Source: a virus. Taken from it: 64,000 nucleotides of DNA. A model generated the notes under the pieces. The model was not told the DNA's origin. It did not search any database and was given only the letters and a program-made list of their open reading frames with translations. Below, in pieces: positions 7,377-10,798 of the stretch; position 1 is the first letter of the stretch; every line of letters starts with the position of its first letter. The stretch covers positions 1 through 64,000 of IMG/VR virus record IMGVR_UViG_3300032289_001838. One strand, 5' to 3'. The position numbers were made by a program, and so were the translations under genes.

Positions 7377-8342
7377 ATGAACTACAAAAATCAACTTTTT
7401 TATTCCATCGTAATATTAATACTAACCGGTTGTATTTCCTCCGAAGTTAAATCCGCAAAACAAGTTACAGTGGCACAAGATGCGGTTGCTAAACAAGAAG
7501 CCAAATTAGACGATACAATGGTTGAATTGGAAAAAATAGAAAAAGGCAAACGAGTGCAAACATCGTCTTTATCTATAGGTATTCAACACTCTTTGAGTCA
7601 AGTAACAAATGCACCGGTACAAGTTGATACTGCTAAATCATTAAATGAACGTGTCATTTCTATAGTGGGTTCTCCGCATATAGATGAAATCAAACGTATC
7701 AAAGCTACCGTTGATTTATTGAATAGTCAAGTTGCTGAAGAAAGAAAGAAAGGCGATCAGTTGTTATCACAACGTGATGAAATTATAAATAAATTGCAAA
7801 AAGAAAAGTCTGCTTTAAAAGAAAGGTATGATGATGAACTCTGGCAAATGACCGATAAAGCAAAAGAAATTGCAAAAGAAGCAGATCAAAGCAAAGCTAC
7901 TCTTGATGCTATGAGTGGTATGTTTGGTCTTAACGCTGTATTTTGGGGATTAAAGAAGTTCTTTATTAGTGCAATGACCGCAATTATTATATTTGTTGTT
8001 GTATTCGTTTTGTTAAGAATATTGGCAAGTGTACATCCAGCAGCGGGTGCAGCATTTAGTATATTCAATATGATTGGTTCTGGATTATTAAGTTTGGTTA
8101 AAGCATTAACACCAAAAGCATTTGAATTGGCTAATTTTACTTCAAAAGACAAAGTTGATGAATTCAAGTCTCCACTTGTTAAAATAGTTGATGTAATTCA
8201 AGAACTAAAAGAAAAACAAAAAGAATCCCCAGACAAAATATATCCATTGAATGATGTATTGAAAAGATTTGATAAAGAAATGGATAGTTCTGAAAAAGAA
8301 TTGATTGATGATATTTTAAAAGAACAAAAATGGATTAAATAA
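7377..8342 (+). CDS. Lipoprotein with coiled coil and C-terminal transmembrane segments (possibly spanin-like)
   Basis: Signal peptide with lipobox LTGC (Cys19), long helical charged region, hydrophobic segments at about residues 180-245. Confidence 0.6.
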   Translation: MNYKNQLFYSIVILILTGCISSEVKSAKQVTVAQDAVAKQEAKLDDTMVELEKIEKGKRVQTSSLSIGIQHSLSQVTNAPVQVDTAKSLNERVISIVGSPHIDEIKRIKATVDLLNSQVAEERKKGDQLLSQRDEIINKLQKEKSALKERYDDELWQMTDKAKEIAKEADQSKATLDAMSGMFGLNAVFWGLKKFFISAMTAIIIFVVVFVLLRILASVHPAAGAAFSIFNMIGSGLLSLVKALTPKAFELANFTSKDKVDEFKSPLVKIVDVIQELKEKQKESPDKIYPLNDVLKRFDKEMDSSEKELIDDILKEQKWIK

Positions 8343-8417
8343 ATTAATATTAATATTTATTATATAATTGTTTTAGATTGTTAACTAGTGTTATGTGTTA
8401 ATAAACTAAATACGATT

Positions 8418-8795
8418 ATGGATACAAATACAGCACACGTAATATCTCAACAGGTACTAGAATCAACCGCACAAGATATGACAGGCAAATATGTCTGGAT
8501 GTTTGTAGCGGGGTTAGTAATTTTGATATTTAAATCAAGCATTGAAAAGTTAGCATCAGCGCTTTTCATGTTTATCGGAAGTGATTATAAAGAAGATGAC
8601 GTTGTATACATCGATGGTAAACCCGGCAGAATTGTACGCGTGGGTTTAACTAAAACAGTTTTTTTCATATATGATATAGTAGACGGTAAAGTTGCAGGTG
8701 GTAGTAAATTAGTTATTCAAAATGAAAGATTAGCAAGTCTAAATATAGAGAAACCTCTGCCCCAATTAGATTTGTCTCGTTTCAAAAAAGACTAA
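8418..8795 (+). CDS. Small membrane protein, MscS beta-domain-like
   Basis: One TM helix, then YKEDDVVYIDGKPGRIVRVGLTKTVF...LVIQNERL, matching the MscS middle-domain pattern. ATG at 8418 is preferred over GTG at 8388. Confidence 0.6.
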   Translation: MDTNTAHVISQQVLESTAQDMTGKYVWMFVAGLVILIFKSSIEKLASALFMFIGSDYKEDDVVYIDGKPGRIVRVGLTKTVFFIYDIVDGKVAGGSKLVIQNERLASLNIEKPLPQLDLSRFKKD

Positions 8796-8810
8796 TATAC
8801 TAATTAAACC

Positions 8811-10589
8811 ATGGCTATTAACATTTTTACCCACATTAGAAGAGGTCTATACGATAACGTCTGCAACTGTATAGAAAAAGAAAAAGTAGATGTCAATCAA
8901 AGAGATGATGACACTGGCAATCCACCGCTGGTTGTTGCAGTAGAAGAAAATCAAATAGAAATAGTCAGATTACTATTAAATCACGGCGCAGATCCTAATT
9001 GCAAAGATTGGACCAGTAAAAATACCGCATTGGATGTAGCTGAACAAAAAGGTTTCAAACCTATTGCAGAAATATTACAACAACGAGGAGCAAAATATAG
9101 CAGTGGTAGTAGTTTCCATTTGGCTGCAAAAAATGGCGATATCGTTTCTATCGAAGAAATGTTAAACAAAGGTTGTGATATCAATGAAGTTGACGCTGGT
9201 AAAGGTTGGACTGCACTACATTATGCTGTAAATTATGGACAAAAACACTTGGTTGAATATCTGATTATAAGAGGCGCTGATGTTAACAAGAAAGATTTCT
9301 TGGGTAAAAACAATCCTATTGACGTATTATCCAATACCAATAGAGGTGATGTTGTTAAATTGTTGAATAAATACGGTGCTAAATCCGCAGGTGGTACTAG
9401 TATTCATTTCTGTGCGGAAACTGGTGATTTTGAAGGTGTACAATCATTTTTTGATAAAGATGGTAAAGTCAATGGTAGAGACGAAAAGAACGGATGGATG
9501 CCACTACATTACGCCGTTAACGCTAACGATGTTGATATGGTAGAATTTTTGGTACATTTAGGTGCGAATGTTAACGGTGCGGATTTTAAAGGTGAAATTG
9601 CTTCATTAGATTTGGCATTTAAGACGGGTAATGTAGAAATGCAAACATATCTACAATCCAAAGGCGCTTTAAGAAAGAAAAAACACGATATTGGTAGTGG
9701 TGGTGGAAAAGATGTAAACATATACATCACAGATGAAGTTAAAAAGCAAATTGCATTGTTTGTTGAAAAACGCAATCGTGAAGAAGCTGCAATAAAGAAA
9801 CACGAAGAAGAACAAGCAGCAAAAGAACCAAAAAAGAAAGATGTACCAGCAAAGAAAATTAACTGGAAAGATTTCTTGAAACTTAAAGATATTCCAGTGG
9901 TAGAAAAGAAAGAAGAAAAGAAAGTAGAAGTTGTTAAACCTGTCAAACAAGTTGCCAAGAAAGTTGAACAAGTTGATGTAGAAGTCAAATCTGGTAGATT
10001 ACAATTAGACATAGAACAAGAAGGTTACATATTCTTTATGGACATTGTTGCTTATAGCAAGAAAACAACAGATGAACAAAAGAAGGCTTGTAAAGATTTG
10101 GGTACATTGGTTAAGTCTACAATGCAATACAAAACTGCTAATGCTCTTGAAAAGTTAATTATATTACCTACTGGCGACGGTATGGTATTGGGATTCTTTA
10201 CTTATTTAGAAGATGCAATGAATTGTGCTATTGCTATAGCTAAGGCAGTAAAGGATAGACCAGATTTACAAATGAGAATGGGTGTACATTGTGGAACTGT
10301 AATACCAATGGAAGATATTAACGGCAATCTCAATATCAGTGGCGACGGTATCAATTATGCTCAAAGAGTAATGGATGCAGGTGAAACTAATCATTTGTTG
10401 GTTAGTTCAGCCGTAATGTTAAAATATGATAGACCACCATATGTATTAGTGAATGATTTAGGCGATGTGGTTGTAAAACACGGTGTAGTGATGCACTTGT
10501 ATAGTTTACACAGTAGTGACTTTGGCAACAAAGCATTTCCATCAAGCAGAGTAAAAAAAGCAGAACCAACAACAAATAAACCAGTATGA
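8811..10589 (+). CDS. Ankyrin-repeat class III nucleotidyl cyclase
   Basis: About 9 ankyrin repeats (GWTALHYAV, GADVN), a Lys/Glu linker, and cyclase motifs FMDIVAYS, TGDG, RMGVHCG and GDGINYAQRV. Confidence 0.9.
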   Translation: MAINIFTHIRRGLYDNVCNCIEKEKVDVNQRDDDTGNPPLVVAVEENQIEIVRLLLNHGADPNCKDWTSKNTALDVAEQKGFKPIAEILQQRGAKYSSGSSFHLAAKNGDIVSIEEMLNKGCDINEVDAGKGWTALHYAVNYGQKHLVEYLIIRGADVNKKDFLGKNNPIDVLSNTNRGDVVKLLNKYGAKSAGGTSIHFCAETGDFEGVQSFFDKDGKVNGRDEKNGWMPLHYAVNANDVDMVEFLVHLGANVNGADFKGEIASLDLAFKTGNVEMQTYLQSKGALRKKKHDIGSGGGKDVNIYITDEVKKQIALFVEKRNREEAAIKKHEEEQAAKEPKKKDVPAKKINWKDFLKLKDIPVVEKKEEKKVEVVKPVKQVAKKVEQVDVEVKSGRLQLDIEQEGYIFFMDIVAYSKKTTDEQKKACKDLGTLVKSTMQYKTANALEKLIILPTGDGMVLGFFTYLEDAMNCAIAIAKAVKDRPDLQMRMGVHCGTVIPMEDINGNLNISGDGINYAQRVMDAGETNHLLVSSAVMLKYDRPPYVLVNDLGDVVVKHGVVMHLYSLHSSDFGNKAFPSSRVKKAEPTTNKPV

Positions 10590-10798
10590 GAGTAATGCCT
10601 TTGGTAAGACAATATCATCCAAGTATTGTTAACACAGATTTGGATGTATATAAGATAAAAGATAGAGTAATGGCTGCGCCTATAAATAATCATCCAGATC
10701 CATATCAGATAATTGATAGACTTGGTATAAATCAAATTAACCCTACTAAGATAAAAACAGTGGTTTATAATTCCAAGGGTCTTTTTTACATAATATAA
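10586..10798 (+). CDS. Hypothetical protein (70 aa)
   Basis: ATGA overlap with the cyclase stop; fills the gap before the next promoter. Confidence 0.55.
   Translation: MRVMPLVRQYHPSIVNTDLDVYKIKDRVMAAPINNHPDPYQIIDRLGINQINPTKIKTVVYNSKGLFYII

Follow-up and report, generated by a model that had tools for sequence, protein, structure and literature searches.

Accessory genes, among them a putative ankyrin-cyclase, between the head genes of an uncultured T4-like freshwater phage

Results and Discussion

Overall organization of the locus

The window, i.e. the whole stretch of 64,000 nucleotides analysed here (positions 1 to 64,000 of IMG/VR record IMGVR_UViG_3300032289_001838), originates from an uncultured T4-like large phage of fresh or lake water with a G+C content of about 33%. 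Between two minus-strand head genes, the GP88-like gene (6115-7266) and the gene of the Gp23-type major capsid protein (11669-13486), it harbors an island of plus-strand genes with the following features:

7365..7372, plus strand: motif TATTTATA, ending 5 nt before the ATG of gene A; a recurrent pre-start motif of this phage
7377..8342, plus strand: gene A, 321 residues; lipoprotein signal, helical region, hydrophobic anchor, conserved tail
8343..8417, plus strand: A-B spacer with the conserved AT-rich element TTATTATATAATTGTTTTAGATTGTTAAC...GTTAATAA, kept in window-type lineages
8418..8795, plus strand: gene B, 125 residues; one membrane helix (about 24-46), amphipathic helix, small β-barrel
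8811..9680, plus strand: gene C, residues 1-290; ankyrin domain (Ank_2, E 3.6e-41; Ank, E 2.1e-37)
9681..9995, plus strand: gene C, residues 291-395; Lys/Glu-rich variable linker with poorly conserved, indel-rich alignment columns
9996..10589, plus strand: gene C, residues 396-592 and stop codon; class III cyclase homology domain (PF00211, PDB matches, conserved residues)
10586..10798, plus strand: gene D, 70 residues; soluble, its start overlapping the stop of C
10802..10829, plus strand: consensus sigma-70-type promoter TTGACA-16-TATAAT with TG, 12/12, preceding the Mom-like gene
10836..11609, plus strand: Mom-like DNA-modification gene (PF25680, E 6.6e-44; phrog_1384)
11617..11644, plus strand: strong terminator-like hairpin of 12 pairs, separating the Mom-like gene from the convergent capsid gene

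The initial annotation had described four co-oriented genes inverted relative to the structural genes, and the ORF calls place all four on the plus strand as listed. The island does not end there, however, as the Mom-like gene at 10836-11609 is a fifth gene of the same orientation. Database searches at E ≤ 0.001 returned 1158 homologues of A, 1440 of B and 129 of C, while D displays dN/dS values of 0.04-0.29 against eight relatives; A, B, C and D are thus more than chance ORFs. The Mom-like gene is an independent unit with its own promoter and terminator: the sigma-70-type promoter is kept in six distinct upstream sequences (the window, L006, L027, L046, L064 and L035), and past the island genes the hairpin alone makes a convincing terminator candidate.

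The box said to head the island is present upstream of A, but it is not special to this position, for TATTTATA or a close variant precedes 11 of the 51 called genes and starts at -12 or -13 in seven of them. Several structural genes on the minus strand are among those carrying a motif of this type at -12/-13. Window-wide, 26 copies are found versus 16.5 expected, a number that was reached in 4 of 100 shuffles. Among the upstream sequences compared, the arrangement TATTTATA-TTAT-ATG in front of A is kept in six distinct ones, and the motif is missing there in the L063, L078, L084 and L087 lineages. We regard TATTTATA as a candidate late-type promoter or short-leader signal.

The envelope genes A and B

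The predicted product of A starts with a signal peptide (hydrophobic segment 6-25) that ends in the lipobox LTGC, the cysteine of which (Cys19) follows a variable hydrophobic leader and is itself unchanged in all 12 sequences aligned, the most distant of them 63% identical. A helical or coiled-coil region of about 160 residues follows, then a strong hydrophobic anchor (187-227, hydropathy 3.03) accompanied by a weaker second hydrophobic stretch, and finally a conserved C-terminal tail of about 75 residues. The structure model is all-helical at low confidence (pLDDT 58.8), and no family was found in Pfam, PHROG, NCBIfam or PADLOC. Unimolecular spanins of the phage T1 gp11 type consist of a lipoprotein N-terminus and a C-terminal transmembrane domain and are encoded in the lysis cassette. 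Like these, A combines an N-terminal lipoprotein signal with a C-terminal membrane anchor and could therefore bridge both membranes. Contrary to the gp11 type, it is more than twice as long, helical instead of β-rich, and continues past the anchor with its conserved tail. The endolysin families PF00959, PF01510 and PF01464 were not found in the records of four relatives, nor was a holin identified, and hence no lysis cassette could be tied to A.

Translation of B most likely starts at ATG 8418 and not at GTG 8388, because its homologues comprise 125-129 residues and begin with MDTN. An alignment of 14 sequences contains 82 invariant columns. In a comparison with the Pfam family MS_channel_2nd (PF00924), B scores 15.8 bits (E 0.015), below the cut-off of 20.2, and a sequence-profile search of the PDB gave no match. 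The best Foldseek matches of the low-confidence model (pLDDT 59) are chains of the MscS family with E-values of 2e-3 to 4e-2, namely 4hwa_A (E 2.2e-3), AtMSL10, Flycatcher1 and MscK. The modelled helix-helix-barrel layout of B thus resembles that of this family (E. coli MscS, 4hwa and 2oau; AtMSL10; Flycatcher1; MscK). Differences are found outside this core: B possesses a single hydrophobic segment, lacks the TM1-TM2 sensor helices as well as the C-terminal α/β vestibule domain, and ends about 25 residues past the barrel. A cNMP-binding domain, such as is fused to the MscS homologues known as bCNG channels, is missing as well. The former assignment of B as MscS-like is retained, tentatively, only for the core, with its putative pore helix, β-domain resemblance and sub-threshold Pfam match, and not for a full MscS channel.

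Gene neighbourhoods in related phages

Gene neighbourhoods, the comparison of which the initial annotation had proposed, were examined across about 150 related viral loci; the counts below refer to 39 distinct B loci, all of them from relatives with B at least 80% identical, and to 31 distinct C loci. The outcome is divided. On the one hand, the A-B pair is constant across the block, and B is adjacent to C in 28 of the 31 distinct C loci and absent from two. The slot behind B is variable, being filled by C with or without D or by other cassettes: C is found in 34 of the 39 distinct B loci, f37-f38-f15 in four and f15 only in one. Besides C, the relatives encode an HD-domain protein, a β-rich secreted protein and a membrane cyclase of canonical type, which scores 96 bits against PF00211 and has a periplasmic sensor region. 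In each of the 39 distinct freshwater loci, B is followed either by C or by one of its alternatives, a second cyclase of canonical type or a gene for an HD-domain protein; the cyclic-nucleotide theme proposed earlier is thereby borne out, and the locus is a cyclic-nucleotide hot spot.

On the other hand, the units can be separated. C and D occur without A and B within several kilobases in L040, L056/L057, L070 and L223/L224, and L064 has additional genes between A and B, as L063 has between B and C. In the marine sister clade, C is absent nearby from 15 of 20 B-like loci (present in five), and among those with 7 kb on both sides from four of five. A single module of four genes, as originally suggested, is therefore not obligatory.

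D, the small ORF previously noted as coupled to C, does overlap it in an ATGA at 10586-10589. It directly follows C in 25 of the 31 distinct loci and moves together with C in L056/L057/L070. Its 15 distinct proteins align with 29 invariant columns, and profile searches found no known family. Together with its dN/dS values, this sequence conservation identifies D as a real gene under selection.

We interpret the locus as an accessory-gene island of three separable units (A-B, C-D and the Mom-like gene) and not as one circuit, and consider this explanation, including the mechanism outlined at the end, slightly more probable than not to be correct.

Unlikely, by comparison, is one wired envelope circuit of the kind put forward in the initial annotation, in which A, B or both would sense or gate the envelope, the cyclase would set or read their state, and a B channel gated by cyclic nucleotide or ankyrin would time lysis or block superinfection. 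The several different cyclase and HD cassettes right behind B in 39/39 freshwater loci are in line with such wiring, as are the membrane cyclase with its periplasmic sensor region and the β-rich secreted protein of the relatives, and the resemblance of the modelled B fold to MscS channels. C begins 15 nt downstream of the end of B, so that co-transcription of the two is probable in this window. In the marine clade a B-like gene is found no farther than 6 kb from C at 20 of 40 loci, on either strand and always beside a PhoH-like block. Against the circuit stand the occurrence of C-D without A or B and of marine B-like genes without C, the missing TM1-TM2 and vestibule domain of B, and the homologues of A and B, about ten times as numerous as those of C in searches that are not strictly comparable. 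Furthermore, Pfam, NCBIfam and PADLOC searches detected no recognisable nucleotide- or cNMP-binding domain in A, B or D.

The constant presence of a cyclase or HD gene after B would also fit a functional tie of B to cyclic-nucleotide genes and in this respect speaks against separable units; since B is at least 80% identical in all 39 loci, shared ancestry may also account for the constant adjacency. We give little credence to B being the phage's own membrane gate, controlled by the cyclases or the HD hydrolase of the slot without a CAP-type receptor, by way of nucleotide bound to the barrel or via the ankyrin arm, which would time permeabilisation for lysis or for the exclusion of later phages. 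A cyclase-to-channel link between C and B is treated here as hypothetical.

The ankyrin-cyclase C and its relation to known systems

The N-terminal domain of C comprises about nine ankyrin repeats, counted by eye and arranged in three triplets. Its C-terminal domain matches PF00211 with 22.4 bits versus a cut-off of 21.9 over half of the profile (positions 93-182), and with 24.3 bits in a second search; relatives of the domain at 46% identity match positions 11-182. In the PDB, the closest entries are 3mr7 ("Adenylate/guanylate cyclase/hydrolase", E 1.7e-4) and 1ybt (E 4e-3), the latter, with 1ybu, representing M. tuberculosis Rv1900c (LipJ). As in these proteins, a soluble cyclase domain is fused to other modules, and the TGDG metal motif, the R.G.H.G strand and the N...R transition-state pair are shared; TGDG and N..R align with both structures, the N..R region with GDAVNVAARL of 3mr7. 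C differs from these proteins by belonging to a distinct subfamily, by Leu/Asn at the base-specifying positions, where 3mr7 has Lys/Asp, and by the N-terminal fusion to the ankyrin repeats.

A search with the cyclase domain yielded 4758 representatives at E ≤ 0.001. The nearest relatives, 45-50% identical, belong to bacterial signalling proteins that combine several domains, including TPR or kinase domains, and among the best 149 representatives the ankyrin fusion is seen in phage clades only. All Ank-cyclase domains group together in the tree (SH-aLRT 99), and the same protein is found at 69% identity on a contig with 63% G+C. The fusion arose once and then spread over phages of very different G+C content.

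Uncultivated pelagiphages carry adenylate cyclase genes adjoining curli (T8SS) genes and thus, like the window phage, a cyclase as auxiliary or regulatory gene near envelope-related genes (PMC9599517). Unlike the window phage they are podoviruses, the context there consists of curli, histidine kinase and FecR, and the accessible part of that report does not mention an ankyrin fusion.

Class III cyclases drive Pycsar, as published accounts summarize, and the locus resembles this system in the placement of a class III-type cyclase beside membrane-protein genes in a setting of phage-bacteria conflict. The parallel drawn in the initial annotation does not hold at the level of the components. At E ≤ 0.01 the cyclase domain of C finds no match among the PADLOC models, PycC included, for which reason a Pycsar identity of C was rejected; full-length C retrieves ankyrin models only. 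PF00027, which covers cNMP-binding domains of the CAP type only, was detected neither in the window record nor in five relatives, two of which are complete genomes (296 kb and 174.5 kb), in agreement with the earlier remark that no such domain is visible. No cNMP-binding effector fused to a transmembrane or TIR domain accompanies the cyclase, A and B, both conserved in the phage lineage, are also found without C, and C is encoded by a lytic-type phage rather than in a bacterial defence island.

A part in defence or counter-defence is accordingly judged decidedly unlikely and would be pure conjecture. C might belong to a phage-borne Pycsar-like abortive system directed against competing phages, or its nucleotide might jam, mimic or pre-empt cyclic-nucleotide immunity of the host. 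The accessory and mobile nature of C, its variable slot and the second cyclase of the relatives, which matches PycC models with up to 123 bits (though such models pick up ordinary class III cyclases too), would suit this idea. Papers have dealt with immunity by inhibitory nucleotide signalling and with its inversion by phage sponges, and a phage cyclase might conceivably exploit the same principle. The lack of a PADLOC match for the domain, of a PF00027 effector in the phage genomes searched, and of defence cyclases among its nearest relatives argues against it.

The catalytic residues Asp411 and Asp456 (metal), Arg489 (phosphate-binding) and Asn515/Arg519 (transition state, N-x3-R) are the same in all of 15 Ank-cyclases, the most distant of them 33% identical. 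In 152 domains from the 149 representatives they are kept in 148 (Asp411), 149 (Asp456), 152 (Arg489), 147 (Asn515) and 152 (Arg519) cases, Asp411 (FFMDIV) being assigned by motif and subfamily conservation as the 3mr7 alignment starts at domain residue 61. The base-specifying positions are occupied by Leu452 and Asn508 instead of a Lys/Asp or Lys/Thr (ATP) or Glu/Cys-type (GTP) pair. This is the subfamily norm (129 Leu and 13 Ile at the first position, 142 Asn at the second, of 152 domains) and concerns the choice of substrate rather than membership of the family; the base of the product cannot be predicted from Leu452/Asn508. The name cyclase applies to C at the level of the family, since literature searches identified no characterised member of the Leu/Asn subfamily, i.e. 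none with measured activity.

C is most likely a class III nucleotidyl cyclase homologue and, judged from its residues, predicted to be catalytically competent, so that the ankyrin-cyclase of the initial annotation stands as real, conserved and catalytically plausible. That the domain is no cyclase but lets an ankyrin scaffold bind nucleotides or dimerise, the gene product acting by protein binding alone, or that it forms another product, might be read from the missing specificity pair, the marginal and partial Pfam score and the literature searches, yet we consider it very improbable, as the metal and transition-state residues are kept across phage clades to an extent that is hard to explain without catalysis, and as Rv1900c is active as a cyclase although its specificity residues are non-canonical.

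Proposed mechanism and implications

For the three separable units we propose the following roles. A and B would constitute a conserved envelope pair headed by TATTTATA and are probably made late, since this motif also heads several structural genes. C-D would be a mobile cassette, for which the slot behind B may serve as a preferred landing site, as for other cyclic-nucleotide genes; in the window, C is probably transcribed together with B. C is envisaged as a cytoplasmic enzyme, the cyclase domain of which, presumably as a dimer as in its family, would turn a nucleoside triphosphate into a 3',5'-cyclic nucleotide. The ankyrin domain may dock C on a protein partner of host or phage, or render it responsive to such a partner, with D as a possible small coupled partner of C. 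As the phage lineage has no CAP-type receptor, the signal would most likely be read by cNMP-binding proteins of the host, which in turn would reprogram the infected cell.

Phages are known to degrade or sequester the cyclic-nucleotide signals of bacteria; those that produce such signals themselves have, to our knowledge, barely been studied. In the present case, strong selection maintains one or two class III cyclases throughout a lineage of T4-like phages abundant in aquatic habitats. The product of C and the partner of its ankyrin arm would reveal in what way a virus redirects the second-messenger signalling of the cell it infects, and an activity of C would be the first for the large Leu/Asn subfamily among bacterial cyclases. 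Should B turn out to be the target, it would represent a new minimal type of channel under nucleotide control.

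Organization of the plus-strand island

The window belongs to an IMG/VR record of 81.6 kb, for which CheckV estimates a completeness of 27%, and has a G+C content of about 33%. Five genes on the plus strand are flanked by a GP88-like gene and the capsid gene, both located on the minus strand:

6115-7266, minus strand, GP88-like head gene
7377-8342, plus strand, A, lipoprotein gene
8418 (ATG), plus strand, start of B, small membrane gene; first listed from GTG 8388, ATG 8418 being the start of the 125-129-aa homologues
8811-10589, plus strand, C, ankyrin-cyclase
10586-10798, plus strand, D, 70-aa open reading frame
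10836-11609, plus strand, Mom-like gene
11669-13486, minus strand, Gp23-type major capsid protein

The initial annotation had described an island of four genes; all four open reading frames are present, but the fifth plus-strand gene, the Mom-like one, had been omitted. B and C are separated by a gap of 15 nt, and C and D overlap by ATGA.

The closest cultured kin of the capsid protein are Microcystis phage Mel-JY01 (50%), followed by the Flavobacterium phages vB_FspM_immuto (48%). Neither the island DNA nor the A and B proteins matched cultured phages, and C matched them via its ankyrin repeats only (Wolbachia phage WO and Acinetobacter phage records). With respect to the host, this capsid kinship at 48-50% and the Verrucomicrobiota MAG label of three contigs provide hints only. 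The first 2000 nt of the window display a G+C content of 51% and a GC skew of -0.45, compared with G+C values of about 0.27-0.42 elsewhere.

Promoter-like and terminator-like signals

The following short signals were located:

7365-7372, plus strand, TATTTATA, ending 5 nt ahead of the ATG of A
6080-6087, minus strand, TATTTATA-type copy
16239-16246, minus strand, TATTTATA-type copy
26628-26635, minus strand, TATTTATA-type copy
48168-48175, minus strand, TATTTATA-type copy
63425-63432, minus strand, TATTTATA-type copy
10802-10829, sigma-70-type promoter before the Mom-like gene

The spacing between TATTTATA and A is kept in window-type lineages. The motif had been taken as a box heading the island, and its position directly before A stands; it is not island-specific, however, as TATTTATA or TATATATA/TATAAATA occurs at most 20 nt upstream of 11 of the 51 called genes in the window, several minus-strand structural genes among them. 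In 7 of these 11 genes the motif starts at -12 or -13 and leaves about 5 nt to the ATG, thereby occupying the normal place of a ribosome-binding site. The arrangement suggests that TATTTATA may be a promoter of late type or a signal for short leaders, with mRNAs that would be leaderless or carry very short leaders.

The sigma-70-type promoter (TTGACA-16-TG-TATAAT, a 12/12 match) is kept in 6 distinct sequences upstream of the Mom-like gene, window included, and the sole strong terminator-like hairpin follows this gene. Promoter-like sites overall are not in excess (19 versus 23.1 in shuffled sequences). The promoter at 10802-10829 is of host type and lies amid the late head-gene region.

The membrane genes A and B

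A harbors a lipoprotein signal and a strong hydrophobic anchor comprising residues 187-227. Twelve sequences, the most distant at 63% identity, all share Cys19 of this signal, whereas the leader ahead of it varies. Its predicted structure is all helical with a long helical region, at low confidence (pLDDT 58.8). No family match was obtained in Pfam, PHROGs, NCBIfam or PADLOC, and the Protein Atlas returned only A's own viral clusters, all of them nameless. The endolysin families PF00959, PF01510 and PF01464 gave no match above cut-off in the records of four relatives.

B shows very strong conservation (82 columns invariant across 14 sequences) and contains a single membrane helix. Its model (pLDDT 59) depicts a long helix and then a barrel of four strands. 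For this model Foldseek finds E. coli MscS as best match (4hwa_A, E 2.2e-3), then AtMSL10, Flycatcher1, MscK and YnaI chimeras, every match spanning 83-91 aligned columns; given the pLDDT of the model, these matches are a lead only. The Pfam MscS beta-domain is matched below threshold (E 0.015) and a profile search of the PDB gave no match. B, termed MscS-like in the initial annotation, is therefore likened to the MscS core only, namely the pore helix and the beta-domain; TM1-TM2 and the vestibule domain of MscS are absent from B.

The ankyrin-cyclase C and the small protein D

Ankyrin repeats (Ank_2, E 3.6e-41) are followed in C by a Lys/Glu-rich linker and then by a class III cyclase domain, which scores 22.4 bits with PF00211 (cut-off 21.9) over half of the profile. 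An exhaustive HMMER search with this domain yielded 4758 representatives at E<=0.001, with identities of 45-50% for the best apart from C itself; ten of the best relatives, scanned with Pfam, are multi-domain proteins that carry TPR domains, kinase domains or ankyrin repeats. Among solved structures the best matches are 3mr7 and Rv1900c (1ybt), to which C aligns with matching TGDG and N...R pair, the base-specifying Lys of 3mr7 being replaced by Leu452.

Residues D411, D456, R489, N515, R519, L452, P453 and N508 are invariant among 15 ankyrin-cyclases, whose identity falls as low as 33%. Counted over 152 domains from 149 representatives, D411 is kept in 148, D456 in 149, N515 in 147 and both R489 and R519 in all 152. 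The conservation of these five residues indicates an intact catalytic machinery. The position of L452 is occupied by Leu in 129 and by Ile in 13 of the 152 domains, that of N508 by Asn in 142, and the odd 'specificity' residues of C are thus a trait of a large subfamily and not peculiar to the phage. The product of C is not readable from its sequence.

Ankyrin repeats are found in just 2 of the 149 representatives, both of them proteins of the marine clade (a shorthand label for a second set of viral contigs, not a recorded habitat). A quick maximum-likelihood tree, calculated for 79 domains without bootstraps and covering 65 of the 149 representatives, places all ankyrin-linked domains in one group (SH-aLRT 99), within which one 187-aa fragment also falls. 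Long contigs from Verrucomicrobiota and Acidobacteriota MAGs carry domain-only relatives with 38-47% identity.

D is a soluble protein of 70 aa with 29 invariant columns across 11 sequences and dN/dS values of 0.04-0.29 versus eight relatives. Prediction of a complex of C and D gave a score of 0.00 (mark 0.32), which, with D's own fold being uncertain, neither supports nor opposes a contact.

The slot behind B in freshwater relatives

IMG/VR was scanned with the C cyclase domain (69 loci) and with a B homologue (80 loci). Loci with a flank of less than 3 kb after B, 1.5 kb before C or 400 nt after C were dropped, and identical sequences were collapsed before tallying. C lies directly behind B in 34 of the 39 distinct stretches of B plus 3 kb; it is replaced by a cassette of three gene families, f37-f38-f15, in four of them and by f15 alone in one, so that a cyclase or HD gene follows B in 39/39. 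Seen from C, B is directly upstream in 28 of 31 distinct stretches, within 1.5 kb in 29 and absent nearby in two (L040, L057), and D directly follows C in 25. The cassette and further genes inserted around A, B and C are located as follows:

L046:7660-10533, alternative cassette in the same slot (also in L053, L087, L117, L119 and L121)
L063:3200-3484, EF-hand-like protein of 94 aa, before A
L063:5506-5832, weak YLATT-like three-TM protein, between B and C
L064:4955-5362, DUF3307 membrane protein, between A and B

The f38 protein (482 aa) is a canonical two-TM sensor adenylate-cyclase-type enzyme (PF00211, 96 bits), in which two hydrophobic segments flank a sensor-like region and, by eye, Lys/Thr occupy the specificity positions; some phages thus encode two cyclases. 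By eye, f37 (215 aa) is a secreted, Tyr-rich protein of beta-type. f15 (259 aa) is termed an HD-domain protein because it contains the H..HD..D motifs of HD-domain hydrolases and weakly matches Pfam HD (E 0.0075) and NCBIfam NF045583 (E 1.3e-14, well below that model's cut-off); a search of the PDB gave nothing significant, and a role as phosphodiesterase is only a guess.

The order of these genes varies. In the complete 296-kb genome of a relative (G001), C has neither B nor D beside it and is some 15 kb distant from A-B, and the latter are followed by f37-f38-f15; in the L056 and L057 genomes C-D lie about 12 kb away from A-B-f15. In L063, which stems from a complete genome of 174.5 kb, B and C are separated by two additional genes, and in L064 the DUF3307 gene separates A from B. 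When the end of B is not fused to C (L040, L047, L053, L056), a conserved AT-rich element of about 60 nt is located upstream of C and contains a palindrome of the AATTGTTA...TAACAATT type. The A-B spacer of the window (8343-8417) holds a similar TTGTTAAC...GTTAA element.

Distant clades and spread of C

The marine-clade ankyrin-cyclases are 33-42% identical overall. A B-like gene (31-40% identical) is found at most 6 kb from C in 20 of 40 loci, on either strand, and always within a conserved block beside a gene that is PhoH-like by eye. Starting from the marine B-like gene, this neighbour is present in 20/20 loci and C in only 5/20, or in only 1/5 when 7 kb are available on both sides. A tblastn search of 42 marine-clade loci detected none of A, D, f15, f37 and f38, and no D-like gene was found by HMM. 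In L156-L190 and L303-L322 the B-like gene and the PhoH-like gene invariably form a divergent pair; the latter encodes about 255 aa with a Walker A motif, and beyond it lie genes resembling a small sigma-like factor and zinc-finger proteins. The B-like genes are thus part of a conserved core block in this clade.

In several marine-clade loci a gene of 452-465 aa adjoins the ankyrin-cyclase (L173:7637-8995, L177:1372-2730, L191:2797-4194); by eye it is of TnpB/IS605 OrfB-type, with CxxC...CxxC near the C-terminus. Such a neighbour may hint at the cassette's mode of movement.

Full-length C (69-73% identity) is also found on short MAG contigs labelled Verrucomicrobiota, with none of A, B and D within 4 kb. 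One of these genes (L223:4001-5785, 69% aa identity) resides on a contig of 63% G+C binned as Verrucomicrobiota, compared with 33% for the window; next to it lie a nucleoside 2-deoxyribosyltransferase-like gene and an FGE-sulfatase-like one. The ankyrin-cyclase gene has spread across very different genomes. The searches gave 1158 homologues of A and 1440 of B, compared with 129 of the cyclase region of C, candidate selection differing between them, and the far higher counts of A and B accord with the split of B and C in their neighbourhoods.

Receptors and interpretation

The initial annotation saw no cNMP-binding domain, and this is borne out: PF00027 was found neither in the window record nor in five relatives, two of which are complete genomes (296 kb and 174.5 kb), while control genomes gave matches. 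No match to a PADLOC model was obtained with the C cyclase domain. PycC models match f38, the second cyclase, just as they match ordinary class III cyclases. A Pycsar-type link is opposed by the missing PADLOC match of C together with the absence of PF00027 from these records. In the literature searched, no phage ankyrin-cyclase or phage MscS-like gene is described. PMC9599517 notes adenylate cyclases in pelagiphages beside curli genes, and passages of PMC12484599 hold nothing relevant to the island genes. Among 20 sequencing runs listed for the locus, none was an RNA run.

The loci in which C and B lie apart argue against one obligatory module of A-D and are the best evidence against an obligatory tie of B and C. 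A functional tie is best supported by the cyclic-nucleotide genes that constantly follow B among the freshwater relatives.

In the favored reading, three units make up the island as a mosaic: A-B as a conserved envelope pair, C with or without D as a mobile ankyrin-cyclase cassette, and the Mom-like gene as an independent unit. C would most likely make a cyclic nucleotide inside the infected cell, and host proteins would most likely be its readers.
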